A stretch of DNA of 33,307 nt from a virus, in IMG/VR virus record IMGVR_UViG_3300015369_000022, positions 1 to 33,307 of that record; one strand, given 5' to 3'. Both the position numbers and the translations under genes were made by a program. Below the pieces are notes generated by a model that had not been told where the DNA came from, made no database searches, and was given only the letters and a program-made list of their open reading frames with translations. Numbering within the stretch: position 1 is the first letter of the stretch; every line of letters starts with the position of its first letter. Shown here piece by piece: positions 9,829-33,307 of this stretch.

Positions 9829-10773
9829 ATGAGCGGAAAATATTATCAGCTGGTAGCCGATGAGAAGAGCGACAGCGCGGAGCTTTATATCTTCGGAGAC
9901 ATCGCGGAAGAAGGATCGAAGTGGTCTGAGCTCGACAAGAGCGCATCCGATATCGTGTCTGAGCTTAAGGCTCTCAAGGCGAAGAATCTTGACGTACACA
10001 TCAACAGCTATGGCGGCGATGTGAAGGAAGGTCTCGCAATCTATAACACTCTCAAGAATGCTGACATGAAGGTGAAGACCATCGATGATGGCTTCGCGTG
10101 CTCAGCGGCGTCGGTCGTATTCATGGCCGGAGGCGAGAGAGTTATGAACGATGCATCTCTTCTCATGATTCACAATGCCTGGACATTCGGAGCCGGTAAC
10201 GCTGAGGAGCTTCGCAAGATGGCGGACGATCTCGAGATCGTAAACCAGGCGAGCGTCGAGGCGTACAAGGCAAATTCGAATCTCGATGAAGCTACGATCA
10301 AGGAGCTTATGGACGCGGAGAGCTGGATTCTCCCGGAGGAAGCTCTCGATTATGGCTTCGCGACATCCATCAAGGCAAGAGAATCATCTGACGGTCCGAA
10401 GCAAGGAGCATGGGATGCCATCTTCAAGCAGCTGACAGCTACGCAAGACGAAGAGCCGGAAGAGCCGGAGAATCCGGATGAGCCTGGCGCTCCAGATGAG
10501 CCGGAGATGCCGGAAGATCTGGCGGACAAGCTCGACGAGATCTCCACGAAGCTGGACATCCTCATCGATGCTGTCACATCTGACGAAGATGAGCCGGAGG
10601 ATCCGAAGGAATCCGACGAGGATGAAGAGGATCCGGAAGAGCCGGACGATGAATCTGAAGACGATGAGTCTGATGATGATGAATCGGACGATGATGACGA
10701 TGACACTGACGAAGATGATAAGCCGGAAGAATCCGCGGCGCGTCAGAAGGCTGGATTCAATTCTTTATTTTAA
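9829..10773 (+). CDS. ClpP-like (S14) prohead protease with a long poly-acidic C-terminal extension
   Basis: ClpP core motifs are INSYGGDV and GFACSAASVVFMAGGERVM...LLMIHNAW. The last ~100 aa are D/E/P-rich. Confidence 0.85.
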   Translation: MSGKYYQLVADEKSDSAELYIFGDIAEEGSKWSELDKSASDIVSELKALKAKNLDVHINSYGGDVKEGLAIYNTLKNADMKVKTIDDGFACSAASVVFMAGGERVMNDASLLMIHNAWTFGAGNAEELRKMADDLEIVNQASVEAYKANSNLDEATIKELMDAESWILPEEALDYGFATSIKARESSDGPKQGAWDAIFKQLTATQDEEPEEPENPDEPGAPDEPEMPEDLADKLDEISTKLDILIDAVTSDEDEPEDPKESDEDEEDPEEPDDESEDDESDDDESDDDDDDTDEDDKPEESAARQKAGFNSLF

Positions 10774-10797: not shown

Positions 10798-11934
10798 ATG
10801 AAAATCGATAAGAATATGAAGGATCAGATCAACAAGATCTTCGAGAAGACCGAAGATAAGACTGACGCTGTTATCGAGGCTATGGAGCTTGTAAACGAGA
10901 ATAGATATAAGGAGCTCATCAGCCAGATCACAGAGGAAGCAGCTAATGTCCAGGCTAACGCTGATTATATGAAGCAGCTCGGACTCCATCAGCCGACAAA
11001 GAGCGAGAGAGAATTCTATGAGATCATCAAGAGCGGCAACATCAAACAGGCTATCTCAGCCGATCAGATCACTGTAATTCCTACAGAGATCATCGACAGG
11101 ACAATGGACGGACTCAAGAAGGAGTCGACAGTCCTTGAGCTGGTTGATTTCGCTCCGGCTAACGTGAAGAGATGGATCAGCGCAAGCTATACCGGATCTT
11201 ATGTATGGGGCGAGCTCTTCTCGGCTCTCGATAAGACAAAGGACATCCAGGCAACATTCAAGAGTATCGATCTTGAGCTCGGAAAGCTCTGGGCTCTGAT
11301 CATCATTCCAAAGGCTGTCAGAGACCTGGCTCTCCCATTCGTTGATAAGTATTTCACGGCTGTACTCGCTGAGGTTATGAGAGACGGCCTTGAGTATGGA
11401 TACATCAATGGAGCCGGCATCGCATCATATCAGCCGATTGGAATTCTGAACACAATCGACGATCCAGCTACAGCGAAGACAGCTGTCGAGATCACAGATC
11501 TAACTCCGGTCGGACTCGCTGATGCTTGCGTTACACTGACCACAGTCAATGGCGTTGTAGGTGCAAGAGCTATCGACGAGCTCCACATCGTATGCAATGC
11601 CGCCGATTACTTCCAGTATGTAAGACCGGCAATGCTTGTCCAGAATGCAATGGGAGCATGGGTTGATGGCACCGGAATGAATATCAAGGTACATCCGACC
11701 ACAAACATCGAGAGCGGAAAGGCTGCTCTGACTATCCCTCACGCTTATGTAATGGGATCCTCCGGCGTTGCACTCAATGAGTACAAGGAGACTCTCGCGC
11801 TCGATGACGCTGATCTGGTTATCGGCAAGGTATACGCTAATGGACGTCCGGCGGACGATAACGCGGCTGTAGTATTCGATCCTACAAAACTGACTCCGCT
11901 GTACTTCAATGTTAAGACCATCACTGGAGCATAG
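10798..11934 (+). CDS. Major capsid protein (HK97 fold)
   Basis: 378 aa, follows the protease, with a coiled N-terminal delta-like region. Confidence 0.85.
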   Translation: MKIDKNMKDQINKIFEKTEDKTDAVIEAMELVNENRYKELISQITEEAANVQANADYMKQLGLHQPTKSEREFYEIIKSGNIKQAISADQITVIPTEIIDRTMDGLKKESTVLELVDFAPANVKRWISASYTGSYVWGELFSALDKTKDIQATFKSIDLELGKLWALIIIPKAVRDLALPFVDKYFTAVLAEVMRDGLEYGYINGAGIASYQPIGILNTIDDPATAKTAVEITDLTPVGLADACVTLTTVNGVVGARAIDELHIVCNAADYFQYVRPAMLVQNAMGAWVDGTGMNIKVHPTTNIESGKAALTIPHAYVMGSSGVALNEYKETLALDDADLVIGKVYANGRPADDNAAVVFDPTKLTPLYFNVKTITGA

Positions 11935-14981: not shown

Positions 14982-17345
14982 ATGACTGACGATCTGAAAG
15001 TTGTCGGATTACAATTTAAGGCGGACGGCTCCGCGGACTTTAAGACGTCTCTAAAGGAGATCAATGCGGCATCGAAAGAGAATCAGTCTTCTCTCAAGCT
15101 TCTCAAGTCGCAATACGACCAGAACACATCCGCGACTCAAAAGCTGAAAAATGAGCAGCAATATCTCACGAAGCAAGTCGATCTTTACAAGGACAAGACC
15201 ACGATCCTCCGGAAGGAGCTCGAACAAATGGAGTCCGCTGAGAATCGTGATGAGGAAGCAATCAGCAAGAAAAAGACTCAGCTCAACCAGGCTGAGGCTC
15301 AGCTGAATAAGTATGAGTCCGCGCTTGATGACGTCAATACGAAACTGAAGACTCATCAAGCTGAGCTCGAAGAATGGAGCAAGAAGATCACATCTGTCGG
15401 CGACAAGATGCAAAAGGTCGGAGATGGCATGACGAAGTATGTTACCGGCTCGCTTGCGGCGGCATCGACTGCAATGGTCGGAGTAACTGAAGAGACTCGC
15501 GAGTATAGAACGGCGATGGGAAAGCTCAACACGGCCTTCACAACGAACGGTAAGAGCGCGGCACAGGCTGAAACCACATACAAGCAGCTTCAGTCAGTGC
15601 TTGGCGACTCTGATGTATCGGTAGAAGCAGCGAACCATCTTGCACAGCTGTGCGATGATGAACAGGATCTCCAGGCATGGACGAAAATCTGCACAGGCGT
15701 GTTCGCAACCTTCGGCGACTCATTGCCGATAGAAGGACTGACGGAGGCGGCGAACGAGACCGCAAAGTGCGGAGCTGTTACCGGGCCTTTTGCAGATGCT
15801 CTGAACTGGACGAGCACCAGCGCGGCGGCACTCGGCGATGCGATGGCATCCATACCGGCAGCACAGCAGGCATTCAATGACGCGATTGCCGAGGGCATGT
15901 CTAACGAGGACGCATTCAACGAGGCACTGGCGGCGTGCTCCGATGAGTCTGAGCGTGCGGCGATAATCACCAACACGATGGCGGCTGCTTATGATGGCGC
16001 AGCTGCATCCTACGAGGAAGGCAATGCTGACCTAATTGAAGCGAACAAAGCAACCGAAGACATGGCGGCAAGCATGGCGGACCTCGGAGCAGCTGCAGAG
16101 CCGATTGTAACGACCGGAAAGCAGATGGTGAGCGAGTTTCTTGTCAAGGCAGCAGACGCAGCGACTGAACTATCGAAGAAGTTTCAGAGCCTCTCACCTG
16201 ATACACAGAAACTCATACTGAAAGCGGCTGGCATTGCCGCGGCCATCGGCCCGGTGCTCTCTGTCGGAGGAAGACTGACGAAGGGAATCGGAAAAGTGGT
16301 CGGCAAGGTGCCGAACATTATCAAAGGCGTCCAGAGTGTCATCAAGATCGGCGGCAAGCTGAAGACGGCTCTCATGGCCTTGAATCCGACCACGCTGATC
16401 ATCATCGCGGTCATCGGTTCGCTCATTGCCATCGGCGTCGCATTGTATAAAAACTGGGATACGATCAAGGCATACGCCATCAAGATATGGAATGCCATCA
16501 AGACCACAGTCATTACTGTAGTCAATGGCATAAAGACCGGAGTTACGACGGCATTTAATGCGGTCAAGACCGTGGCTGTCACTGTATGGACCGCAATCAA
16601 GACGGCGATTATAACCGTGGTCAATGCAATCAAGACCGGCGTCATGACCGTATTCAATGGTGTGAAGACATTCGTCACGTCGGCATTCAATGGTATCAAG
16701 ACCGTGGCAACGACGGCATGGAATGCCATCAAGACCGCGATTCTCACTCCGATTACGACGGCAAGAGACAAGCTCAGCGGCATCATATCCGCGATCAAGA
16801 GCAAATTCTCATTCGGAGGCATCGCGGCATCTGTCGCGGCTACGTTCAATGCTGTCAAGTCGAAAATCACAGCTCCGATTGAGACGGCGAAGAACATCGT
16901 CAGCTCCGCGATCTCAAAGATCAAGAGCTTATTCAATGTGCATCTGTCATTCCCGAAGATCAAGCTCCCGCATTTCAAGATTACGGGAGGCAAAGTCCCG
17001 TGGGGAATCGGCGGCAAGGGTACAGCTCCGAAGATCGATATCCAGTGGTATCGCCGGGCTTATGAAACGGCGGCATATTTCGCGAAGCCGACTCTCATGA
17101 CAGCGACGGACGGATCCATCAAGGGATACGGAGACGGACCTGGCGGAGAATTTACCGTCGGAGAGAATAAGCTCCGGTCGACAGTCGCTTCCGGCGTTGC
17201 ATCAGCTTCCGGATTACTGGATCCGCAAGTGATTTACCAGGCGGCTCGACAGGGAGTCATCGACGGAATGAGCGAAGCGACAGTCACGCTCAAGCTGAAT
17301 GACCGTGAGGTCGCAAGAACACTAAGAACGATGGGAGCATTGTAA
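14982..17345 (+). CDS. Tape measure protein
   Basis: 787 aa with a coiled-coil N-terminus, hydrophobic segments and tandem 11-aa repeats. It follows the G/GT pair. Confidence 0.9.
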   Translation: MTDDLKVVGLQFKADGSADFKTSLKEINAASKENQSSLKLLKSQYDQNTSATQKLKNEQQYLTKQVDLYKDKTTILRKELEQMESAENRDEEAISKKKTQLNQAEAQLNKYESALDDVNTKLKTHQAELEEWSKKITSVGDKMQKVGDGMTKYVTGSLAAASTAMVGVTEETREYRTAMGKLNTAFTTNGKSAAQAETTYKQLQSVLGDSDVSVEAANHLAQLCDDEQDLQAWTKICTGVFATFGDSLPIEGLTEAANETAKCGAVTGPFADALNWTSTSAAALGDAMASIPAAQQAFNDAIAEGMSNEDAFNEALAACSDESERAAIITNTMAAAYDGAAASYEEGNADLIEANKATEDMAASMADLGAAAEPIVTTGKQMVSEFLVKAADAATELSKKFQSLSPDTQKLILKAAGIAAAIGPVLSVGGRLTKGIGKVVGKVPNIIKGVQSVIKIGGKLKTALMALNPTTLIIIAVIGSLIAIGVALYKNWDTIKAYAIKIWNAIKTTVITVVNGIKTGVTTAFNAVKTVAVTVWTAIKTAIITVVNAIKTGVMTVFNGVKTFVTSAFNGIKTVATTAWNAIKTAILTPITTARDKLSGIISAIKSKFSFGGIAASVAATFNAVKSKITAPIETAKNIVSSAISKIKSLFNVHLSFPKIKLPHFKITGGKVPWGIGGKGTAPKIDIQWYRRAYETAAYFAKPTLMTATDGSIKGYGDGPGGEFTVGENKLRSTVASGVASASGLLDPQVIYQAARQGVIDGMSEATVTLKLNDREVARTLRTMGAL
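16491..16754 (+). repeat. Eight tandem 33-nt (11-aa) repeats inside the tape measure gene
   Basis: NAIKTTVITVV NGIKTGVTTAF NAVKTVAVTVW TAIKTAIITVV NAIKTGVMTVF NGVKTFVTSAF NGIKTVATTAW NAIKTAILTPI. Confidence 0.85.
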
Positions 17346-17346
17346 G

Positions 17347-18189
17347 ATGAGTATTGATGTAATTTATACCGCATCAAGCGGAAACAAATATAATCTCAAG
17401 GCTTCCGGACTCGGGATGGATCGTGAGACGAATTTCCATTCCTGGACATACTCTCCGAATACTACTCAAAGACAGTACGGAGATAAGCTCAACCGATACG
17501 AGAAGGAGGCTCTGACATACAGCGCAAAATTATACTTCCGCGATTCAATCGAGGATTCGCGGGATATGATCGAAGCGCTCCACGAAGATTTCGAGCTCGA
17601 TATCTCGAATGAGACTCCGGGAAAAATATCGTGGAATGACTGGTATATCGAATGCTATGTCCAGTCATCCACATTGACTCCGGGCGATGATAATGGTTAT
17701 GTCGAGAATGAAGTCGAGATATACGCTCCATATCCTTTTTGGATTAAGGACGCAACGAAGACATTCAATGCATCGTCCGGGACTTCGGAGTATGAATTTC
17801 TCGACTATACTTTCGATTACGAATACGACTATACTCCGGCCGATGTCGGTGTCGCGAAGTGGATAACGCATCATGCGTTCAAGTCGGAATTCTTGATGCG
17901 AATTTATGGTCCATGTTCGAATCCGAAGGTTGTTATCAATGGCCATGTATATCAAGTGTACTGTTCACTCGGAAACGGCGAATATCTTCTCATCAATTCG
18001 AGAGAGGGTACGGCATACAAATACAGCTCGACCGGAGTCGCGACAAACGTATTCGATTTAAGAGATAAGACATCGAGCTTGTTCTACAAAATCCCGGGCG
18101 GGACGCTGACACTGACTTGGCCGGGGACATTCAAATTCGATCTGACACTGTATGAGGAAAGGAGTGAGCCTTTATGGACGACAGCGTAA
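17347..18189 (+). CDS. Distal tail protein (Dit, Sipho_tail-like)
   Basis: 280 aa, directly after the tape measure. Confidence 0.7.
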   Translation: MSIDVIYTASSGNKYNLKASGLGMDRETNFHSWTYSPNTTQRQYGDKLNRYEKEALTYSAKLYFRDSIEDSRDMIEALHEDFELDISNETPGKISWNDWYIECYVQSSTLTPGDDNGYVENEVEIYAPYPFWIKDATKTFNASSGTSEYEFLDYTFDYEYDYTPADVGVAKWITHHAFKSEFLMRIYGPCSNPKVVINGHVYQVYCSLGNGEYLLINSREGTAYKYSSTGVATNVFDLRDKTSSLFYKIPGGTLTLTWPGTFKFDLTLYEERSEPLWTTA

Positions 18190-19175
18190 GAATGATTCTT
18201 GCGACTCCGGACGGTAAGGAGCTCAAATTCCTCTCGGACATGACTATCGACATCGAGATCGGCTCGAGTGATGACACATTTCAATTGACTTTCTCTCGAG
18301 CGGCATGGGATGAGGATATCGAGGAAGGCTGTCGAGTCTTTATTCCGAACACGGAATACGGCGGCCGCGTGAAGCGCAAGGGGACAGCTACGTCATCGGA
18401 TGAGATCTCCGTCGGCGGGCTGACCTGGCGCGGGATGATGGACTATCGAATCATCCAGCCGGCATCCGGCAAAGATTACGCGACAGCATCCGGAGATCTG
18501 AATGAGATCATCAAGGAATTTGTCGAGGATGAATTCCCCGGCTTATTCTATGGAGTCGATACGGAGACCGGCGTCACGCTGACGAATTATCAATTCGACA
18601 GATATTGCACGCTCCACGATGGTCTTCAAAAGATGCTCAAAGAGAGCGGATATCGGCTTGATATCCAGTACATCCAGGGCGAAGCCGGTGCTCCGGGCTA
18701 TGTTCAAGCGCAAGCGCTCGAGATCATCGACTACTCGGACATCATCGAGCTGTCGGAAGACTCTCGAATCAATTACACGGCATCTGAGCGCCATGATTGT
18801 GTCAATCATCTTATATGTCTCGGCTCCGGAGACCTGGCTGAGCGTACTGTCATCCATCTTTACGTCGGATCCGACGGATCCGTCGGTACGACTCAATACT
18901 ATACCGGGCTCGACGAAGTCGTGGCTATATATGATTATGCCGGCGCTAATGATGACGATCTGAAGACAGAAGGGATCAAACAGTTGGAGAGCATGAAGGA
19001 CTCTGATAATTTCGCAATGGACATCTCAGAGCTCGACATCGACTCCATCGCTATCGGAGACATCGTCGGAGGAAGAGACTATCTGACCGGAATGAGCATG
19101 TCAGCGCCTATCGTCGGCAAGATTTATAAAGTCGAAAACGGCGAGGAATCAATTGAATTCAAATTGGAGGAATAA
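18174..19175 (+). CDS. Tail tip/baseplate protein (Sipho_Gp37-like, in the Tal position)
   Basis: 333 aa with an AAGGAG RBS, located between Dit and the fibre gene. Confidence 0.55.
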   Translation: MDDSVRMILATPDGKELKFLSDMTIDIEIGSSDDTFQLTFSRAAWDEDIEEGCRVFIPNTEYGGRVKRKGTATSSDEISVGGLTWRGMMDYRIIQPASGKDYATASGDLNEIIKEFVEDEFPGLFYGVDTETGVTLTNYQFDRYCTLHDGLQKMLKESGYRLDIQYIQGEAGAPGYVQAQALEIIDYSDIIELSEDSRINYTASERHDCVNHLICLGSGDLAERTVIHLYVGSDGSVGTTQYYTGLDEVVAIYDYAGANDDDLKTEGIKQLESMKDSDNFAMDISELDIDSIAIGDIVGGRDYLTGMSMSAPIVGKIYKVENGEESIEFKLEE

Positions 19176-19177
19176 CC

Positions 19178-19939
19178 ATGAATATTATTACCGGATACGG
19201 CGGCGAGCCGCACGTTACAGCTCCACAGGATCGTCAGCTGAACGCTGGCATCCTCTCGGAATATAATTATGTACTCAGTGTCGGGAATCAATTCGCATAT
19301 GAGATCGAGTCGGCGAATTCCGTCATCCTTAAAGACGGGATTCTGTCCCTCCAGGGATGCGCTGCTTCGATTGATGCGAATGATACAGAGACGGTCACTC
19401 TGACGAATGGTACATCCGGATATAAACGGACGGATTTGATCGTGGCACGTTATGAGCTCAACACTGATACAGCCGTCGAGTCGGTCACGCTGGCCGTCAT
19501 CGAAGGCACTCCGGCGGAATCGGATCCGGAGACTCCATCATACAATGAAGGTACGATCGCGGACGGTGACAGCCCGGTTGACTTCCCGCTGTATAAGGTC
19601 AATATCGACGGAGTAAGCATCGATTCACTGACTCAGATGTTTACGGTCCTTCCGTCAATTAGTGATTTAAACAGCAACACAGTGAAAGATATCAGAGTCA
19701 TTGAAGTGTCCGTATCAATAACAATCAATGCATCTACATCCGGCACAAAAACCGCGACTTATACCATCCCGGATGGCTATAAGGTTGTTATGTTCGGAGG
19801 ATGCACATCGTCAAATACTACAATCGTCCCGGCTGGTGTTACAGGCTTATCCGGGACTGCAACATTTAGAGGACGCAACACATCGAGCTCATCTCAGACA
19901 ACAACGCTGACAGCTATCTTGTTATGCTTTAAAAGTTAG
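19178..19939 (+). CDS. Tail fibre / receptor-binding protein; the current C-terminus is cassette x1 (19678-19939)
   Basis: Last tail gene before the lysis module. Its C-terminal ~87 aa are homologous to three silent cassettes. Recombination core A lies in frame at 19667-19677. Confidence 0.7.
   Translation: MNIITGYGGEPHVTAPQDRQLNAGILSEYNYVLSVGNQFAYEIESANSVILKDGILSLQGCAASIDANDTETVTLTNGTSGYKRTDLIVARYELNTDTAVESVTLAVIEGTPAESDPETPSYNEGTIADGDSPVDFPLYKVNIDGVSIDSLTQMFTVLPSISDLNSNTVKDIRVIEVSVSITINASTSGTKTATYTIPDGYKVVMFGGCTSSNTTIVPAGVTGLSGTATFRGRNTSSSSQTTTLTAILLCFKS
19667..19677 (+). repeat. Recombination core A (TTAAACAGCAA), inside the tail-fibre ORF
   Basis: Read directly. Codons TTA AAC AGC AAc encode LNSN. 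Confidence 0.7.
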
Positions 19940-19968
19940 GAGTAAAGCCTATAAAGTAAGGAATAAGT

Positions 19969-20226
19969 TTAATCCTTCATATACAGAATACTTAAAATAA
20001 CATATTCATTAGAATAAGCTGTTGAATTGTGATTCTTTACTCTAACAATTGCATCTGTACCATCCAGATTGAATTTTGCAATTGTACTTGCACCGGAAAA
20101 CCAATTCATCACTCCTACAATACCAATCGGCGTATAACCATCTTTTGAGACATCGGTTGTTATGTCCAATGTACTGGATGCAGGAAGCGTTGCTTTTGCG
20201 GATGTAATATTCTCAACAAGAAACAT
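19969..20226 (-). CDS. Silent alternative tail-fibre C-terminal cassette x2 (frame open up to core B at 20237-20247)
   Basis: Convergent with the fibre 3' end. The upstream in-frame codons read QLNSNIKD, against DLNSNTVKD in the fibre. It shares the DGY motif and a hydrophobic C-terminal pattern. No RBS or promoter is visible. Confidence 0.6.
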   Translation of the reverse strand: MFLVENITSAKATLPASSTLDITTDVSKDGYTPIGIVGVMNWFSGASTIAKFNLDGTDAIVRVKNHNSTAYSNEYVILSILYMKD

Positions 20227-20236
20227 ATCCTTGATA

Positions 20237-20247
20237 TTGCTGTTTAA
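20237..20247 (-). repeat. Recombination core B (TTAAACAGCAA on the - strand)
   Basis: Exact inverted copy of core A, in the same codon register. Confidence 0.7.
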
Positions 20248-20277
20248 TTGATTAGTTATTTCTAAGGAGAATTGAAA

Positions 20278-20580
20278 ATGAATGAAGGTACAAAGATAAG
20301 GACCGCGCTTCGCGTTGCGGTCTCTTTGAATACCGCGATTTATGCTGTAATGGCCGCGGTCAATGGTCTCGGAAGCACAAAGGCGTCAATCGTCTGGAGC
20401 GTGCTGACGATTCTCAGTGATTTCGTCGTGTCGTTTATTACGACATACTATAACAACGATTATACGAAGGAAGCGTGTCTCGGGACCGGCATCACGCGCC
20501 AGCTGAAGGCTGAGGGCGGTGACGGCTACGGAGCTGAGACATTCTTTTCAGATGAGGAAGGAGCGTCAGAGGATGAATAG
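20278..20580 (+). CDS. Holin (SPP1-family-like)
   Basis: AAGGAG lies 8 nt upstream of ATG 20278. Motifs are GTKIRTAL, two TM-like segments and YYNNDYTKEA, with an acidic tail. It overlaps the endolysin start. Confidence 0.75.
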   Translation: MNEGTKIRTALRVAVSLNTAIYAVMAAVNGLGSTKASIVWSVLTILSDFVVSFITTYYNNDYTKEACLGTGITRQLKAEGGDGYGAETFFSDEEGASEDE

Positions 20581-21409
20581 TGCTATATACAGACAGTATG
20601 ATTCACGCTGGGGCTCGCTTCCGTATCCTACGAAGACCTATAACATGAGCGGATGCGGATGCGGATGTTGCGCGGTGCTCCATTGCATTATCGAGCGCTC
20701 AAAATATGCGAAGTATACTCCGAAGACCATCCAGCCATACATGAAGGGCTTCGCTGTCGGCGGAAACGGGACTCTTTGGAGCGGGATCCGCGACGGGCTG
20801 AAGCATTATGGCATGGATAATGTCAAATGGTTTGGTGCATCGGCCACAATGACGGAGATCTTCGCTGAGCTGAAGAAGGGATCCAGAATCGGAGTCATCC
20901 TCTTCGGATCCACGAAAGGCCCGGACGGGACTGTATGGACCACAGGCGGCCATTATATCGCTTTTACGGATTACAAGATCAAGAATAGCAAGCACTATTT
21001 TTATCTTAAGGATTCCGGCGGACGGAAGCATGATGGATGGTATTGCTATGAGAAGTCCATGAAGGGCGATGTCCGCCAGGTCTGGACATGTACTGTCCCG
21101 AAGGAGGCATCGACAGCCACAGCGACAGCTTCCACAAAGAAGACCACAGCGAAGACATCATCGAAAAAGACCTATTCCGGGACATTCCCGTCCTTCTCAA
21201 AGTGTCTCGAGAAGGGCGATAAGGGGACTCAAGTGAAGAATCTCCAGAAATTCCTCAATTGGTACGGAGGATATAAGCTCACTGTCGATGGTATTTACGG
21301 ATCCGCGACAGTGACAGCCGTGAAAAAATTTCAAAAGGCTGAGGGACTGACCGCTGACGGCATATTCGGCCCGGCATCCCTCAAGGCCGCGAAGAAGGTG
21401 AAGAAGTGA
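20573..21409 (+). CDS. Endolysin: N-terminal papain-fold cysteine peptidase plus C-terminal PG_binding_1 domain
   Basis: Motifs are YDSRWGSLPY..SGCGCGCCAV (catalytic Cys region) and GGHYIAF. The C-terminus GDKGTQVKNLQKFLN...VDGIYGSATVTAVKKFQ is a peptidoglycan-binding repeat. Confidence 0.8.
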   Translation: MNSAIYRQYDSRWGSLPYPTKTYNMSGCGCGCCAVLHCIIERSKYAKYTPKTIQPYMKGFAVGGNGTLWSGIRDGLKHYGMDNVKWFGASATMTEIFAELKKGSRIGVILFGSTKGPDGTVWTTGGHYIAFTDYKIKNSKHYFYLKDSGGRKHDGWYCYEKSMKGDVRQVWTCTVPKEASTATATASTKKTTAKTSSKKTYSGTFPSFSKCLEKGDKGTQVKNLQKFLNWYGGYKLTVDGIYGSATVTAVKKFQKAEGLTADGIFGPASLKAAKKVKK

Positions 21410-21705
21410 TGCCGCCAGAGGTGTTAATTGCTATCATCGGGAGCTCAGCTCTCTTCTCATTCATTCAATTCATTATCACGCGAATTGATAACAAGCGGAA
21501 TAATCCGCTCAATGACGCGGTAAAAGCGCTGCTCAGAGACCGGCTGATTCACATATGCTCCGGATATCTGAGGAATGGCGAGATCCGCGTCAACGATCTC
21601 GACACGGTTATAAGCTTATATACATCGTATAAAGAACTCGGCGGGAATGGTTTCGTCACGGAGCTGGTCGACCAGGTGACGGAGCTTCCTAAAATTCATA
21701 ATTAA
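21406..21705 (+). CDS. N-terminally membrane-anchored protein (possible lysis accessory protein)
   Basis: A TM segment (VLIAIIGSSALFSFIQFII) lies at the N-terminus. The start overlaps the endolysin stop. Confidence 0.5.
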   Translation: MMPPEVLIAIIGSSALFSFIQFIITRIDNKRNNPLNDAVKALLRDRLIHICSGYLRNGEIRVNDLDTVISLYTSYKELGGNGFVTELVDQVTELPKIHN

Positions 21706-21722
21706 ATACTTCCTACATATAA

Positions 21723-21755
21723 GGCGGGCCTTTAATGGTCCGCCGCTTTTTTTTA
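21723..21755 (+). terminator. Rho-independent terminator ending the late/lysis operon
   Basis: The hairpin ggcgggcc-tttaat-ggtccgcc is followed by a T9 tract. Confidence 0.75.
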
Positions 21756-21801
21756 TTTGATAAGATTCTCGAATCGAATCAAAATGAAGGAGGAAATTAT
21801 T

Positions 21802-22662
21802 ATGTACGAGTATGAAGAATTATGGGATACAGCCTTGAGACGCTTCCGGGCTTGCAAGACATTGGAGAATTGTGCTGAGACCACCATCAAGCAATATGAA
21901 GACATCATTCGGAAACTGAGGCAATGGACAGACAAGCCGCTGGACCAGATCAATGGAGACGATCTCCGGGAATTCCTGGCGGAATACCATTCGAGCCGGA
22001 ATGTCTCGCTTGCATATCTCGACACTCTGAGACGCTATCTGTCGGCATGGTTTGGATGGGTAGCCGATGACGATCTGATTATGAAGAATCCGGCAAGGAA
22101 AATCCCGAAGATTAAAGTCCCGAAGACCGTCAAGAAGGCATTCACATCCGAAGAACGCGAGATGCTCAAGGATTCCGCGTCATCTATTCGAGATCTGGCG
22201 CTCATGGAGGTCCTTTATTCGACCGCGGCCCGTATCAACGAGATCCTGGCGCTGGATCAGAGCGATGTCGACTTCCCGAATCGTGAGATCGTCATATACG
22301 GACAGAAAGGCAAGCGGGAGAGAATCGTATATCTGTCGGATCCGGCGGCATATCGCCTCCAGCGCTATCTCGAGAGCCGGTCCGATAAGAATCCGGCGCT
22401 ATTCGTCTCGAATCGGAAGCCGTATCAGCGCTTAACGTCCCAGGGAGCTCAGCGGATGCTCAGAGAGCTGGGACGCGAGACCGGGATCCATGTTCACGCT
22501 CACAAATTTCGGCGGAGCTTCCTCACTGATGCATCATCGAAAGGAATGAGCCTCCAGGAATTACAGATCTACGCTGGCCATGTGAAGCCGGAAACCACAA
22601 TGACATACATCGACGTCAAACAGGAAGACATCAAAGCCACATTCCGGAGAATAATCACATAA
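21802..22662 (+). CDS. Small tyrosine site-specific recombinase (XerC/D-like size); candidate shufflon invertase
   Basis: GAAGGAGG RBS precedes ATG 21802. Catalytic signature is ARINEIL (R), HKFRRSF (HxxR) and GHVKPETTMTYI (H..Y). The stop codon TAA (22660-22662) is part of core C. Confidence 0.8.
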   Translation: MYEYEELWDTALRRFRACKTLENCAETTIKQYEDIIRKLRQWTDKPLDQINGDDLREFLAEYHSSRNVSLAYLDTLRRYLSAWFGWVADDDLIMKNPARKIPKIKVPKTVKKAFTSEEREMLKDSASSIRDLALMEVLYSTAARINEILALDQSDVDFPNREIVIYGQKGKRERIVYLSDPAAYRLQRYLESRSDKNPALFVSNRKPYQRLTSQGAQRMLRELGRETGIHVHAHKFRRSFLTDASSKGMSLQELQIYAGHVKPETTMTYIDVKQEDIKATFRRIIT

Positions 22663-22669
22663 ACAGCAA
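22660..22669 (+). repeat. Recombination core C (TAAACAGCAA)
   Basis: Read directly. It is in the register aTA AAC AGC AAt and leads in frame into cassette x3. Confidence 0.65.
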
Positions 22670-22670
22670 T

Positions 22671-22922
22671 TTGACGCTTGTAAAAAAAACGTATACTGGA
22701 ACGACGTCCGACACAAATTCCATCGTAAGCACGGAGCTAAGCATCGAAGATTATATTCCTCTTAAATGTAATTGTGCCATCAAAGGCTATGAGGTATGTG
22801 TTGTGCCTTATTGTTATAGCACATGGAAGTTTCAGCTCGTCGCTGCTAACGGTCATGCTCCTGTCGGTTCTGGGAAAAGTTACACCTTAACTGTGTGGCT
22901 TTTGGAATGGCCTACATCTTAA
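22671..22922 (+). CDS. Silent alternative tail-fibre C-terminal cassette x3 (in frame from core C)
   Basis: It has no ATG or RBS; the track start is TTG. It is ~85 aa with a KGY motif and an LTVWLLEW-type C-terminal strand, homologous in layout to x1, x2 and x4. Confidence 0.5.
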   Translation: MTLVKKTYTGTTSDTNSIVSTELSIEDYIPLKCNCAIKGYEVCVVPYCYSTWKFQLVAANGHAPVGSGKSYTLTVWLLEWPTS

Positions 22923-22932
22923 TGCCTCAAGA

Positions 22933-23191
22933 CTAATCATCCGATGCTCTGAGCAAGAGCCGGAGCTTGCAAGTTATTCCGGAGGCTGAGCCGGATGTGT
23001 GGTTTACAATATACGCTCTGTTGAGGCTGTCATTGAGTTTAACTGTCAGATAATGATAATTTGTGCCGGACAGCAATGGAGTTATTGACAGACAATCATA
23101 ACCATCCGGGACAGTAAAAGCATAAGGAGTCGAATTGCCTCCGGCATAAGAGCCGCCTGTTACAAGCGTGATGTCCTCAATCGTGAGAGTT
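22933..23191 (-). CDS. Silent alternative tail-fibre C-terminal cassette x4 (in frame from core D)
   Basis: FTVPDGYDCL in x4 aligns with YTIPDGYKVV in the expressed fibre. The track ORF extends to 23328 only by read-through of noncoding repeats. Confidence 0.6.
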
Positions 23192-23201
23192 TTGCTGTTT
23201 A
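23192..23201 (-). repeat. Recombination core D (TAAACAGCAA on the - strand)
   Basis: Read directly. The register is GTA AAC AGC AAA, encoding VNSK. Confidence 0.65.
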
Positions 23202-23230
23202 CTTGACAAACACGCTCAAATTCCGCATCA

Positions 23231-23290
23231 AGCTTGATTATTTTATAATTTTTTGAAAATAGCTTGATTATTTTATAATTTTTTGAAAAT
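23231..23290. repeat. Perfect 2 x 30-bp tandem repeat (agcttgattattttataattttttgaaaat)
   Basis: Read directly: 23231-23260 is identical to 23261-23290. Confidence 0.9.
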
Positions 23291-23299
23291 GCGGAAAAA

Positions 23300-23328
23300 A
23301 TTCGCGCAAAATCCGGAAAATTTGTCAA
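23300..23328 (-). promoter_or_regulatory. Promoter-like element facing leftward toward core D
   Basis: On the - strand, TTGACA is followed by 17 nt and then GCGAAT, with TG at the extended -10 position. The -10 is weak. Confidence 0.3.
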
Positions 23329-23481
23329 GTTACATCGGCTGGATATTGAGAGGGGTATGGCATTTCCCTCCTTGAGCTTATTCTATTCGAGGACATCATC
23401 GTCCTCATCGTCGAGCCCGGCGAAGTCGGTCTCGGCATCCACAGGACCGGAGTGACGAGCAGCTCCGGTCTTGTATTTCGA

Positions 23482-23502
23482 GGGTGAATTTAGGGGTGAA
23501 TT
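23482..23502 (+). repeat. Putative integrase arm-type sites (GGGTGAATT, GGGGTGAATT), left arm of attP
   Basis: Direct repeats at 23482-23490 and 23493-23502. Confidence 0.5.
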
Positions 23503-23613
23503 GACTCATTTTTATTGATATTTAATGATAATGAATTTATAATCTTTTCCATATGTTTCACGAATTATCAACATCCGTGATGCGCGGTGATAAGCGAAGA
23601 TAAGGGACATAAT

Positions 23614-23639
23614 GAATTCAAGTCCCTCTTCGCGCACCA
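23614..23639 (+). other. Putative attP core: 3' end of a tRNA gene (T-loop, T-stem 3' strand, acceptor 3' strand, CCA)
   Basis: gaaTTCAAGTCCCTCTTCGCGCACCA resembles T-loop/TTCAAGT + CCCTC + TTCGCGC + A + CCA. No matching 5' half is present, so this is a fragment and not a gene. Confidence 0.55.
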
Positions 23640-23640
23640 T

Positions 23641-23685
23641 AAGAGCGTCGGAATTTCAACGTGTCCGGCGCTCTTTCCTTTTGTT
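23641..23685 (+). terminator. Terminator-like hairpin directly after the tRNA 3' fragment
   Basis: aagagcgtcgga...tccggcgctctt (one mismatch) is followed by tccttttgtt. Confidence 0.45.
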
Positions 23686-23686
23686 A

Positions 23687-23707
23687 GGGGTGAAAACGGG
23701 GTGAATT
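23687..23707 (+). repeat. Putative integrase arm-type sites (GGGGTGAAAA, GGGGTGAATT), right arm of attP
   Basis: Direct repeats at 23687-23696 and 23698-23707, in the same orientation as the left-arm copies. Confidence 0.5.
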
Positions 23708-23751
23708 ATACCCGCTGAGGCTGAAAATTTGCCGGGTATCCCGCGAGTAAA

Positions 23752-23780
23752 TCAAAAAGCCGACCGCTTTGTGGTCGGCT
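23752..23780 (-). terminator. Rho-independent terminator of the integrase gene
   Basis: The - strand reads AGCCGACC-acaaagc-GGTCGGCT followed by TTTTTGATTT. Confidence 0.7.
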
Positions 23781-23806
23781 CATTAAAATCGCTTAAATCG
23801 AGAATT

Positions 23807-24952
23807 TTAGCTTTGCGCTGATAAGAGCTCATCGATGCCATGCGCTATTCCTCTGGAGCTGGCGGATGCATCCTGGAAGAGATGAGTGTATATGTCGAGC
23901 GTGGTCGACTTCTCAGCATGTCCCAGCTGGCTCGATATGTCGAGTATGTCATATCCCAGATATCTCGCAAGGCTGGCGTGAGTATGACGGAGCTTGTGCG
24001 GTGTTACGGCCGGGAGATTGTGTCGCTCTTCCAGCCGCATCAAATACCAGCTGACTTGATTCGAGTGGATCGGGGATCCGTCATAGTCCAGGATGACGAA
24101 ATTTGATCGCTCAAGGCCCGGCATCCGGATCCAGAGCTCGAGATGCCGCTTCCGGAGCTGAGCGAGATGATCCTTGAGCCGGTCCGGGATGGCTATCGTC
24201 CGGGCTGACTCTTTTGTTTTGGTATCAGAGACGATGTCCTTGATCTCATCGCCGGTATTCACGCGATGGCGCGACTTATTCACAGTGATGATGCCGTCTC
24301 CGATGTTATCGACGGTGAGACCTAAGATCTCCGACATACGGAGACCACAGAATAAGGCCAGCTCAATCGCACATACGCGGTCCGGCTCCGCGTCAAATTC
24401 CGTATCAAGAGCGCTACAAAATGGAATAAATGTCTCAATGTCCAGAGTGATCGGCTCCTTGCGCTCTTTTTTCGGAAGCTCGACTCGCTCGCAAGGATTC
24501 CGGTCGAGCTCTCCCAGGCGGACAGCCCGGTTATATGCTGAGCTGAGCAGCGAGACCGTATTCCGGACCGTCTTCGGAGAATAATTCTTGTCTTCCGTCA
24601 GTTTCCGGATCCATCTGTCGATATCCATCGGCTTCACGTTCTTCGCTTTCGGATCTCCCAGAGTCTCAGCGATGCGCTCCCGGACTACACGGTATCCTCT
24701 GAGCGTGGTCTCTCTGGCTCCGGCCGACTTCCTGGCGTCGATATAGTCATTGATGATGTCAGAGAGCGTCACGGATCCGCGGAGAGCCTTATTATTATCG
24801 ACTTCGGTCTCGAATAATCTGTATTGACGATTGAGATCCCGCTTCGATGTATATTCGACCGTCTTCTTGTATCGGATCGGCTTCCCGGCGAGATCTGATC
24901 CTCTGTATACCACGAGCCGGGCCTTATGATCGTTAATTATTTCAATTCCCAT
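23807..24952 (-). CDS. int: Phage integrase (tyrosine recombinase with N-terminal arm-binding-type domain)
   Basis: 381 aa. Signature is GLRMSEIL (R), HKLRHTHAS (HxxR) and GHAEKSTTLDIYTH (H..Y). The gene is adjacent to attP and the repressor. Confidence 0.9.
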   Translation of the reverse strand: MGIEIINDHKARLVVYRGSDLAGKPIRYKKTVEYTSKRDLNRQYRLFETEVDNNKALRGSVTLSDIINDYIDARKSAGARETTLRGYRVVRERIAETLGDPKAKNVKPMDIDRWIRKLTEDKNYSPKTVRNTVSLLSSAYNRAVRLGELDRNPCERVELPKKERKEPITLDIETFIPFCSALDTEFDAEPDRVCAIELALFCGLRMSEILGLTVDNIGDGIITVNKSRHRVNTGDEIKDIVSDTKTKESARTIAIPDRLKDHLAQLRKRHLELWIRMPGLERSNFVILDYDGSPIHSNQVSWYLMRLEERHNLPAVTPHKLRHTHASLARYLGYDILDISSQLGHAEKSTTLDIYTHLFQDASASSRGIAHGIDELLSAQS

Positions 24953-32435: not shown

Positions 32436-33307
32436 GGGCTACAACATCAAGGATGTGCTCGCATATCTTGAGCCTTCGGAGCTCGATTATACGGAGTGGA
32501 CTAAGGTCGGAATGGGGCTCAAGGAGTCCGGATATTCCGTCGAGATATGGGATGACTGGTCCGCCAGGGATCCGGGCCGATATCATCCGGGCGAATGTGA
32601 GAAAAAGTGGAATTCATTCCGCGGAGGCTATGACAGGGATGTATCCGTCGGATCTATCGTCCAGATGGCTAAGGATCGCGGCTGGATGCCGCCGGTCGAG
32701 GAAGGCCACGAGCTGTCATGGGATGATTACATCGGCAAGGACAAGAAGGTCATCGACAAGGCATGGCTCGAGGGCGAGGAAGTCCATGAGCCGAATGATA
32801 AGGAATGGAAGCAAGCCGCGGAGCTGATCAAGTACATTGATACGCTCTTCGCATCCGATGAGTATGTCGGATATGTATGTGAGGCATGGCAAAACAAGGA
32901 CGGGAAATATCTCCCATCCAAAGGCGTGTATACGATGACGGCCGGCGAGCTGATTGACAAGCTGTCGAAGTGTAAGAATAACGACATCGGCTCCGTACTC
33001 GGAGATTATAAGCCGGAGGTCGGAGCATGGATCCGCTTTAATCCGCTTGATGGTAAGGGAGTCAAGAATGACAATGTCACGGATTTCAGATATGCACTGG
33101 TAGAGTCTGACACGATGCCGATCGATAAGCAAAATGCCATGATCAGAGAGCTGGAGCTTCCGGTCGCATGCCTTGTGTATTCCGGCGGAAAGTCAGTCCA
33201 TGCAATCGTCAAGATCGACGCGGCTGATTATGCCGAATATCGGAAGCGTGTTGATTACCTTTATGAGGTATGTAAGCAAAACGGACTTGTCATCGATACG
33301 CAAAACA
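32425..33307 (+). CDS. Primase-helicase, N-terminal part (PriCT-2-like domain plus primase-polymerase-like core); continues to 1346 across the junction, about 695 aa in total
   Basis: ATG 32425 overlaps the helicase stop. Motifs are YTEWTKVGMGLKESGYSVEIWDDWS (PriCT-2-like) and VESD...VYSGGKSVHA (catalytic-core-like). There is no stop codon before the window end. Confidence 0.8.
   Translation, partial: MDGKGYNIKDVLAYLEPSELDYTEWTKVGMGLKESGYSVEIWDDWSARDPGRYHPGECEKKWNSFRGGYDRDVSVGSIVQMAKDRGWMPPVEEGHELSWDDYIGKDKKVIDKAWLEGEEVHEPNDKEWKQAAELIKYIDTLFASDEYVGYVCEAWQNKDGKYLPSKGVYTMTAGELIDKLSKCKNNDIGSVLGDYKPEVGAWIRFNPLDGKGVKNDNVTDFRYALVESDTMPIDKQNAMIRELELPVACLVYSGGKSVHAIVKIDAADYAEYRKRVDYLYEVCKQNGLVIDTQN
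33167..33307. repeat. Terminal overlap copy 2 (identical to 1-141)
   Basis: Read directly. The copy is in frame with the ORF that starts at 32425. Confidence 0.95.

Follow-up and report, generated by a model that had tools for sequence, protein, structure and literature searches.

What does a 10-nucleotide sequence do that recurs four times, in alternating orientation, at the edges of four short coding segments within a single phage genome? This question is raised by positions 19178 to 23328 of the IMG/VR virus record IMGVR_UViG_3300015369_000022, the whole 33,307-nucleotide stretch of which was analyzed here and is called the window below. An initial annotation, made from the DNA letters alone, had proposed that a tyrosine recombinase acts on several sites in this region to exchange, by inversion, the C-terminal receptor-binding tip of a tail protein. 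Having followed up that proposal, we consider it quite probable that the locus, carried by a temperate phage of gut type, is a phage-encoded tyrosine-recombinase shufflon for the tip of a baseplate receptor-binding protein (RBP) and that it is, or recently was, active in switching. Multisite inversion of this kind is backed by the anatomy of the locus, by the predicted fold of the RBP, and by relatives that share the four-site layout with a co-varying core, while the swapping of tips is supported by cassettes that are silent in one genome and expressed in another and by inversions in a sister family that end exactly at the cores.

Core sites, cassettes and the receptor-binding protein

The proposed shufflon consists of the following elements, arranged as two head-to-head pairs (A with x1 facing x2 with B, and C with x3 facing x4 with D) on either side of the lysis genes and the recombinase gene:

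19178..19666, plus strand: constant part of the RBP gene (163 codons), encoding the N-terminal region, the shoulder (a beta-sandwich) and the first part of the neck
19668..19677, plus strand: core site A, TAAACAGCAA within the RBP gene at codons 164-167 (L-N-S-N); the expression site
19667..19939, plus strand: cassette x1, the predicted head domain expressed at present (90 amino acids plus stop)
19969..20247, minus strand: cassette x2, a silent predicted head-domain cassette (92 amino acids plus stop), reading away from core B
20237..20246, minus strand: core site B, exact TAAACAGCAA
21802..22662, plus strand: tyrosine recombinase, armless and Xer-like, the proposed invertase (286 amino acids; PF00589, 1e-33; PF13495)
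22660..22669, plus strand: core site C, exact TAAACAGCAA
22659..22922, plus strand: cassette x3, silent (87 amino acids plus stop), the most divergent of the four
22933..23202, minus strand: cassette x4, silent (89 amino acids plus stop)
23192..23201, minus strand: core site D, exact TAAACAGCAA

A scan of the whole window for TAAACAGCAA returned exactly four copies, at 19668(+), 20237(-), 22660(+) and 23192(-), spanning 3.5 kb; this list is identical in position and orientation to the one given by the initial annotation, as is the single 9/10 match, at 1291. The codon register that had been claimed for all four cores, xTA-AAC-AGC-AAx, encoding (L/I/V)-N-S-(N/K), agrees with the reading frames, and in this one register each core opens a cassette that stays open until a stop codon (90, 92, 87 and 89 codons for x1 to x4, respectively). 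The accompanying argument that a given 10-mer should occur far less than once by chance did not hold up so well. Since 67 other canonical 10-mers have at least four copies in the genome, and since genomes simulated with a first-order Markov model attain 4 to 6 copies, a four-copy 10-mer is not rare here, and the argument is weak. What carries the signal, rather than the copy number, is that the copies cluster within 3.5 kb, alternate in orientation and share a frame, together with the comparative data.

That the copy number is statistically unremarkable speaks for a very different explanation, which we regard as highly improbable: the 10-mer would simply encode a conserved LNSN at the neck-head boundary of duplicated, paralogous heads, the recombinase would be unrelated to it, either a second integrase or a dimer resolvase of the Xer type, and tips would be exchanged by homologous or illegitimate recombination. 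Three features of the cores count against such a coding motif. First, core C lies outside the fiber reading-frame context; its bases 1 to 3 are the TAA stop codon of the recombinase gene, and its left flank is recombinase coding sequence. Second, the identity between the cores covers all wobble positions, whereas the adjacent codons are unrelated. Third, 10 bp is too short for RecA-dependent exchange.

At sites A and B, the identity extends to 11 nucleotides (TTAAACAGCAA), and site B forms a 21-nucleotide inverted repeat with A and a 19-nucleotide inverted repeat, 89% complementary, with C. The alignment of 40 sites yielded the core consensus WAAAYRGYRA, with conservation limited to 9 to 10 nucleotides; nothing convincing in the way of an extended arm consensus or dyad symmetry was found around the core in these 40 sites, where a weak preference for A was seen at position -2. 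Directly beyond core D, where the shufflon gives way to the integrase/attP region, we also observed a perfect tandem duplication of a 30-nucleotide, AT-rich unit (AGCTTGATTATTTTATAATTTTTTGAAAAT, positions 23231-23290), through which an open reading frame (ORF; 22933-23328, minus strand) runs into x4. This duplication could represent arm-type sites, a promoter or an assembly quirk.

As the initial annotation had it, only x1 is joined to an upstream gene (ORF 19178-19939, which begins with the 163-codon constant part). The in-frame fusions that were anticipated after inversion could be reproduced: predicted fusions of the 163-amino-acid constant part to x1, x2, x3 and x4 are all in frame and measure 253, 255, 250 and 252 amino acids, respectively. 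The shared PDGY/KDGY/KGY motif was likewise found in all four cassettes, with PDGYD in x4 as the counterpart of PDGYK in x1. The description of the cassettes as mutually homologous, however, stood only in part; similarity was detected between x1 and x2 (z = 4.3) and between x1 and x4 (z = 2.4), but x3 resembled none of the others beyond the junction and the KGY.

The protein that carries x1 matches phrog_9994, phrog_25635 and phrog_13141 over residues 1-170/203, and its gene is preceded by those for the tape-measure protein, Dit (phrog_33) and a minor tail protein (phrog_538). An AlphaFold (AF2) model, built with 45 homologues as input (predicted local distance difference test [pLDDT] score of 81), contains two beta-sandwiches, at residues 30-155 and 172-252, with a short helix between them at 161-165. 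The best Foldseek matches of this model in the PDB were the RBP of lactococcal phage 1358 (4l92, E = 1e-4), followed by the p2 RBPs 2wzp, 1zru and 2bsd, and many of its BFVD matches carry the name "Receptor Binding Protein." On the basis of the fold model and these matches, the protein is a siphophage RBP of the shoulder-neck-head type, as in lactococcal phages 1358 and p2, and not as a fiber. Tip swapping in a tail protein, as initially annotated, thus stands, but the designation of that protein as a tail fiber does not. In the model, the crossover position coincides with the short helix between the two beta domains, which would place it in the neck, and x1 to x4 would accordingly serve as alternative head domains.

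A search for homologues of the RBP returned 1857 proteins, and for most of them the alignment is confined to the ~65% of the RBP that is constant. The top 120 of these homologues include 124 pairs with the first 150 residues at least 93% identical yet with C termini less than 50% identical, a pattern that points to domain swapping as a typical property of this RBP family.

The recombinase and natural isomers of its sister family

The 286-amino-acid tyrosine recombinase had been annotated as distinct from the phage integrase, and this was borne out by its domain matches and by the presence of a separate integrase gene. It is composed of SAM_4 and Phage_integrase domains, without an arm-binding domain, and its catalytic set is complete (R144, K169/171, H234, R237, H260 and Y269). 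The nearest solved structure is XerA of P. abyssi (4a8e, 1.3e-31), and the best NCBIfam match is XerA-like (XerA_Arch; 202.6 bits versus a cutoff of 220), with lower scores for XerC (136.6; cutoff, 335) and XerD (120.5; cutoff, 330). That the best family matches are of the Xer type would suit a dimer resolvase, as the coding-motif explanation requires, but all Xer models remain under their curated cutoffs. No serine resolvase or invertase domain was found in the region, where all recombinases are PF00589 tyrosine enzymes. A promoter-like site upstream of the recombinase gene (21757-21785) and a terminator-like hairpin (21723-21752) separate this gene from the late operon, with the number of promoter-like matches in the region equaling the shuffle or chance expectation.

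Homologues of the recombinase, with 49 to 63% identity, are common in IMG/VR and in human-gut metagenome contigs, and almost all of them sit in a module of the form A(+) B(-) recombinase C(+) D(-), which was observed in dozens of contigs. In this sister family, a (+) site is found 0.75 to 1.1 kb and a (-) site 232 nucleotides upstream of the recombinase gene start, and a further (+) site is located ~110 nucleotides past the recombinase stop codon, with a (-) site another 0.5 to 0.8 kb on. The cores are AAATAGTGA, TAAATAGCAA or TAAATGGCAA, and the in-frame cassettes begin with LNS(D/E/N/K). The constant part is a different small protein of 130 to 157 amino acids, encoded after a Tal-like tail protein; no homologue of the RBP N terminus was found near the recombinase homologues in L011-L024 and L057-L105 (L numbers denote the loci or contigs compared). 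The recurrence of enzyme and cores at fixed distances, in dozens of contigs and beside a different constant gene, argues against a mere coding motif in RBP heads.

Several members of the sister family turned out to be natural isomers of one another. Contigs L085 and L081 have flanks that are 100% identical (5.8 kb and 2.6 kb) but differ by in-place inversion of three segments, namely A-B, B-C (recombinase) and C-D, and the core is present at all four breakpoints. L080 shows, relative to an L081-like genome, an inversion of the whole A-to-D segment (A x D), and the pairs L012/L019 and L017/L018 share cassettes at different sites, with the breaks at the core. The B-C segment, which in this family holds the recombinase alone, occurs in both orientations. 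Taken together, these alignments indicate that recombination in the sister family takes place at every inverted pair (A x B, B x C, C x D and A x D). The exact coincidence of breakpoints and core in genomes that share identical flanks is also difficult to reconcile with the coding-motif explanation. By analogy, the isomers provide strong indirect support for the window enzyme and sites acting likewise.

Many of the contigs L057-L090 belong to a widespread human-gut phage lineage with a compact A-B-recombinase-C-D shufflon, a small tail protein and the core AAATAGTGA, in which more than 20 distinct cassette types are shuffled over the four positions. Since many sister-family contigs end at or beside the module, the contig ends suggest that it breaks short-read assemblies. 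Among cultured clostridial phages, Terrisporobacter phage TPELB_ph1 (PP197244.1, 17645-18640, corresponding to L115, 4315-5310) and C. perfringens phage phiCp-D (MW478291.1, 21807-22613) carry midgenome "integrases" with 27 to 33% identity to the recombinase. TPELB_ph1, in which the 33%-identical "integrase" is located between tail and lysis genes and a separate integrase is present, was considered as a cultured carrier of the shufflon and rejected, as no convincing cores were found. A megablast search with positions 18000-24000 of the window against INPHARED phages gave no match.

Cassette exchange in relatives and the proposed mechanism

Relatives of the RBP itself were fetched in two groups, by junction SSLNGK and by junction KELNSN. 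Both groups share the four-site layout of the window, with A(+) in the RBP gene, B(-) ~0.6 to 0.7 kb downstream, tail and lysis genes, and then C(+) and D(-), and every site opens an in-frame cassette of 86 to 123 codons. Within each genome the core is uniform, whereas it differs between the groups (TAAATGGCAA in L005, L009 and L010; TAAATAGCAA in L025), which is another point against a conserved coding motif. Between close relatives, with N termini 96 to 99% identical, cassettes have moved between the proximal and distal pairs: the silent cassette at site C of L010 shares 98% identity with the tip that P0048 expresses, the site-D cassette of L005 is 88% identical to the site-B cassette of L010, and the site-B and site-C cassettes of L005 are 90% identical to each other. 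Since the cores co-vary in concert and the movement of cassettes ends at the core, recombination sites are favored over a coding motif, and this is how the cores are most plausibly read from the alignments.

In L010 and L025, the C-D pair is located at the prophage end, adjoining host genes. In a Lachnospiraceae genome (MGYG-HGUT-01373; L035), an RBP homologue carries a different inverted 14-mer (AATAAGTATTTGTC), at 10493 (residue 165) and at 11125, 630 nucleotides downstream, which may represent another pairing of core and invertase on the same RBP scaffold.

From these comparisons, we infer the following mechanism for the phage in the window. The recombinase (21802-22662) would pair two inverted cores, exchange strands within the shared 9 to 10 bp and invert the intervening DNA. 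Inversion of A x B (570 bp) would put x2 in the place of x1, and C x D (532 bp) would swap x3 and x4 within the reserve pair. A x D (3.5 kb) would bring x4, or x3 after a prior C x D inversion, to the expression site. The latter event would flip the putative holin gene, the endolysin gene, the phrog_4105 ORF and the recombinase gene as well, and a subsequent B x C inversion would restore this block. The outcome would be a lysogen or phage population producing virions with different receptor-binding tips, i.e., host-range bet-hedging. That x3 and x4 are accessible only by inverting a segment with the lysis genes and the recombinase is a point absent from the initial annotation. The genes concerned, together with the phage integrase beyond core D, are as follows:

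20278..20580, plus strand: putative holin, a small protein encoded upstream of the endolysin in the B-C segment; function assigned from position only
20573..21409, plus strand: endolysin, in the B-C segment (PG_binding_1, 2.7e-17; Peptidase_C39_2-like; endolysin PHROGs)
21409..21705, plus strand: ORF matching phrog_4105, the last gene of the late operon, followed by the terminator-like hairpin
23807-24952, minus strand: phage integrase (381 amino acids), separate from the shufflon recombinase

The putative holin gene is called in public contigs and has no family match; its end (20580) overlaps the endolysin start, for which GTG at 20519 and ATG at 20573 are the candidates. The endolysin combines a C39-like peptidase domain with PG_binding_1.

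The position of these genes, with holin, endolysin and recombinase all between the inverted sites B and C (inverted repeat of 19 nucleotides, 89%), invites the thought that gene regulation is the primary function: flipping of the B-C segment would act as a phase-variable lysis or release switch for the lysis genes and the recombinase, with tip exchange being secondary. The occurrence of B x C inversion in the sister family fits such a switch. There, however, the B-C segment holds the recombinase alone, which rules out lysis control as a general function; in five RBP-family genomes, the segment with the lysis genes was never seen inverted; and a scan for an inward-facing promoter at the D flank, which might drive the lysis genes after A x D, found no such site, the promoter-like matches being at chance expectation. 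We therefore consider a regulatory switch very unlikely.

Several observations weigh against the proposal that the locus is a tip-switching shufflon that is, or recently was, active. No inversion was seen in this phage itself, as the three public contigs available for it, which come from one or two samples, have one arrangement, that of the window. An exact search for the A flank joined to the core junction in two collections (metagenome and viral contigs) found no match; since the parental sequence was absent too, the source contigs are evidently outside those two collections. With ~10 bp conserved per site and no arm consensus among the 40 sites, the cores are short for a tyrosine recombinase. 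Cassette x3 has no detectable sequence similarity to x1, x2 or x4 outside the junction and KGY motif, and its single-sequence AF2 model, which is all-beta, has a low confidence (pLDDT of 61), insufficient for searching by fold. When x2, x3 and x4 were joined into one protein query to look for expression of these tips elsewhere, no homologues were retrieved, although short, divergent domains joined in this way probably make a poor query.

Two further points concern the relatives. First, no tyrosine recombinase was found near the sites of L005, L009, L010 and L025 in the 6 to 10 kb available, and across L005-L010, L025-L028 and L029-L056 none was found near sites besides Rin-like ones in Bifidobacterium (a system discussed below). 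The linkage of enzyme and sites is therefore not universal, which would also suit the coding-motif explanation, and the enzyme serving such relatives must be encoded elsewhere or supplied in trans. Second, in five of five independent RBP-family genomes, the B-C segment, which there contains tail or lysis genes, has the same orientation as the RBP gene. Since x3 and x4 can be reached only through inversion of the lysis-gene segment, this co-orientation implies that such inversions may be rare or counterselected; set against the two orientations found in the sister family, it suggests selection against the inverted state of a block that includes lysis genes, and the C-D pair could be a seldom-used reserve.

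Followed to its end, this line of thought leads to a decayed or frozen shufflon, in which cores and cassettes are relics, or in which A x B alone works and the C-D pair is an inert reserve reached via rare double events over evolutionary time. The single isomer of this phage in public contigs, the constant co-orientation of the lysis-bearing B-C segment with the RBP gene in five independent relatives and the high divergence of x3 would all be expected of such a state. Decay is, however, at odds with four perfectly identical cores, four cassettes that are intact ORFs in one register and a recombinase with a full catalytic set; moreover, cassettes have moved between proximal and distal pairs in relatives whose N termini are still 96 to 99% identical, and the sister family inverts at all four sites between genomes with identical flanks. 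On balance, we deem a frozen shufflon unlikely and retain the reading of a present or recent RBP-tip switch.

Related shufflons and wider context

Phage-borne inversion is well known from Gin/G of Mu, Cin/C of P1 and Min of p15B, which are serine invertases with ~26-bp sites and a Fis-dependent enhancer. As proposed for the window, inversion in these systems swaps the C-terminal part of a tail protein, there the tail fiber, and alters host range, and Min has several cassettes; in contrast to these serine enzymes, the window combines a PF00589 tyrosine recombinase with a Gram-positive-type siphophage RBP. The R64/IncI shufflon, in which the Rci recombinase acts on the PilV C termini through 19-bp sfx sites (a 7-bp core plus a 12-bp arm), likewise depends on a tyrosine recombinase and on several short, asymmetric sites that occur in either orientation, and it has one constant N-terminal part with alternative C-terminal segments that set recognition. 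Its target, however, is a conjugative pilus adhesin encoded on a plasmid rather than a phage RBP, and its site sequence differs. No Rci-named family was among the NCBIfam matches of the window recombinase (E ≤ 1e-3), a comparison that did not include the Rci sequence directly.

The architecture as such has a precedent, as the Rin shufflon works on the same principle. This system was described for Bifidobacterium prophages (Mavrich et al. 2018, PMC6109161) and later for Eggerthella lenta (PMC8778435). Rin is an armless tyrosine invertase of XerD-like organization that acts on a 168-amino-acid constant RBP part with cassettes of 95 to 100 amino acids through an 11-bp site, rix (TTCCCTAACCC); inversions were seen in prophage and virion reads, and the constant domain resembles the phage 1358 RBP according to HHpred (PMC6109161). 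The likeness to the window is extensive: both systems have a phage-encoded armless tyrosine recombinase, a constant RBP N terminus (168 amino acids in Rin and 163 here) and several dissimilar C-terminal cassettes, each after a short asymmetric repeat present in both orientations (rix of 11 bp; here, a core of 10 to 11 bp). The constant domains are homologous, both resemble the RBP of phage 1358, and the crossover lies at the same residue, ~164. In a GTDB scan, the RBP-family alignment retrieved Lachnospiraceae and other clostridial genomes plus three Bifidobacterium loci, with 34 to 37% identity. The RBP homologue of L054 contains GGGATTCCCTAACCC at residue 164, with an inverted copy 595 nucleotides downstream, and that of B. 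samirii contains TTCCCTAACCC at residue 164, with an inverted copy beside a tyrosine recombinase.

What differs from Rin is the invertase lineage, the core, the host range and the layout. The recombinases are not detectably orthologous: in a BLASTP comparison of the window recombinase with the recombinases near rix in L052/L054, only a 40-amino-acid local match was obtained (E = 0.002), and the window's own integrase matches the Bifidobacterium Rin-like ORFs better than the shufflon recombinase does. Similarly, phmmer (E ≤ 1e-3) finds the Rin-like recombinases with the integrase as the query but not with the shufflon recombinase. The core, TAAACAGCAA, is unrelated to TTCCCTAACCC of Rin, and the host range here is clostridial (Lachnospiraceae-type relatives), whereas Rin is found in Actinobacteria. 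Finally, Rin cassettes form one contiguous array between Rc and rin, whereas those in the window are split two and two, with the lysis module and the recombinase in the invertible segment.

A tail-fiber shufflon was also reported for a BV01-like phage of Phocaeicola vulgatus, with three cassettes in a contiguous 1.7-kb window and all configurations present in reads (preprint, PMC13596623). Set beside the system studied here by its description, it is likewise phage encoded, recombinase flanked and multicassette, with 10-bp directional motifs at the tail-fiber gene's distal end; its host, however, is a member of the Bacteroidota, its motif is TGGGAGAACT and its three cassettes are contiguous. 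No described equivalent in a clostridial phage was found in the open-access literature, where Rin, the BV01-like shufflon and general inversion surveys turned up.

These comparisons suggest that tyrosine-recombinase RBP shufflons exist beyond the Actinobacteria and are widespread in clostridial (Lachnospiraceae-type) gut phages. They also suggest that two tyrosine-invertase lineages, unrelated to each other and with crossover sites that are unrelated as well, have each become associated with one RBP scaffold and cut it at the same residue in the neck, and that the module of invertase and cassettes is portable between different tail proteins. A more far-reaching reading, which we consider rather unlikely, would hold that the split of the shufflon around the lysis module and, among the relatives, additional tail genes couples host-range switching to phase-variable lysis competence and recombinase expression and that the A-B-recombinase-C-D arrangement is a portable, previously undescribed cassette on unrelated tail proteins. 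Under the first part of this reading, a transient "locked, nonlysing" prophage subpopulation would arise, with B x C inversion as the reset; under the second, a separate Xer-like invertase lineage with its WAAAYRGYRA core would have been grafted onto tail proteins throughout clostridial gut phages, one of them being the same RBP scaffold that serves the unrelated Rin invertase in Actinobacteria.

Through programmed tip switching, as proposed here for the RBP shufflon, one temperate phage genome could address several host surface types, which bears on host-range prediction, gut phage-bacterium dynamics and RBP engineering; for the last of these, the short, defined core and the small size of the cassettes would offer a compact set of tools with which RBP heads could be exchanged. 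In deposited phage genomes and contigs, enzymes of this kind simply bear the name "integrase," which makes the system easy to overlook; a shufflon module can, in addition, break assemblies.

Two minor observations concern the genome as a whole. The C-terminal part of the tape-measure protein (16400-16900) contains many repeats of an ~11-amino-acid motif (…NAIKTxVxTV…). The window itself has a 141-nucleotide exact terminal direct repeat (1-141 and 33167-33307), which identifies the contig as the circular assembly of a phage genome of 33,166 bp with a GC content of 49%; public contigs that measure 33,196 and 33,169 bp share 99.98% identity with the window and have different start points.

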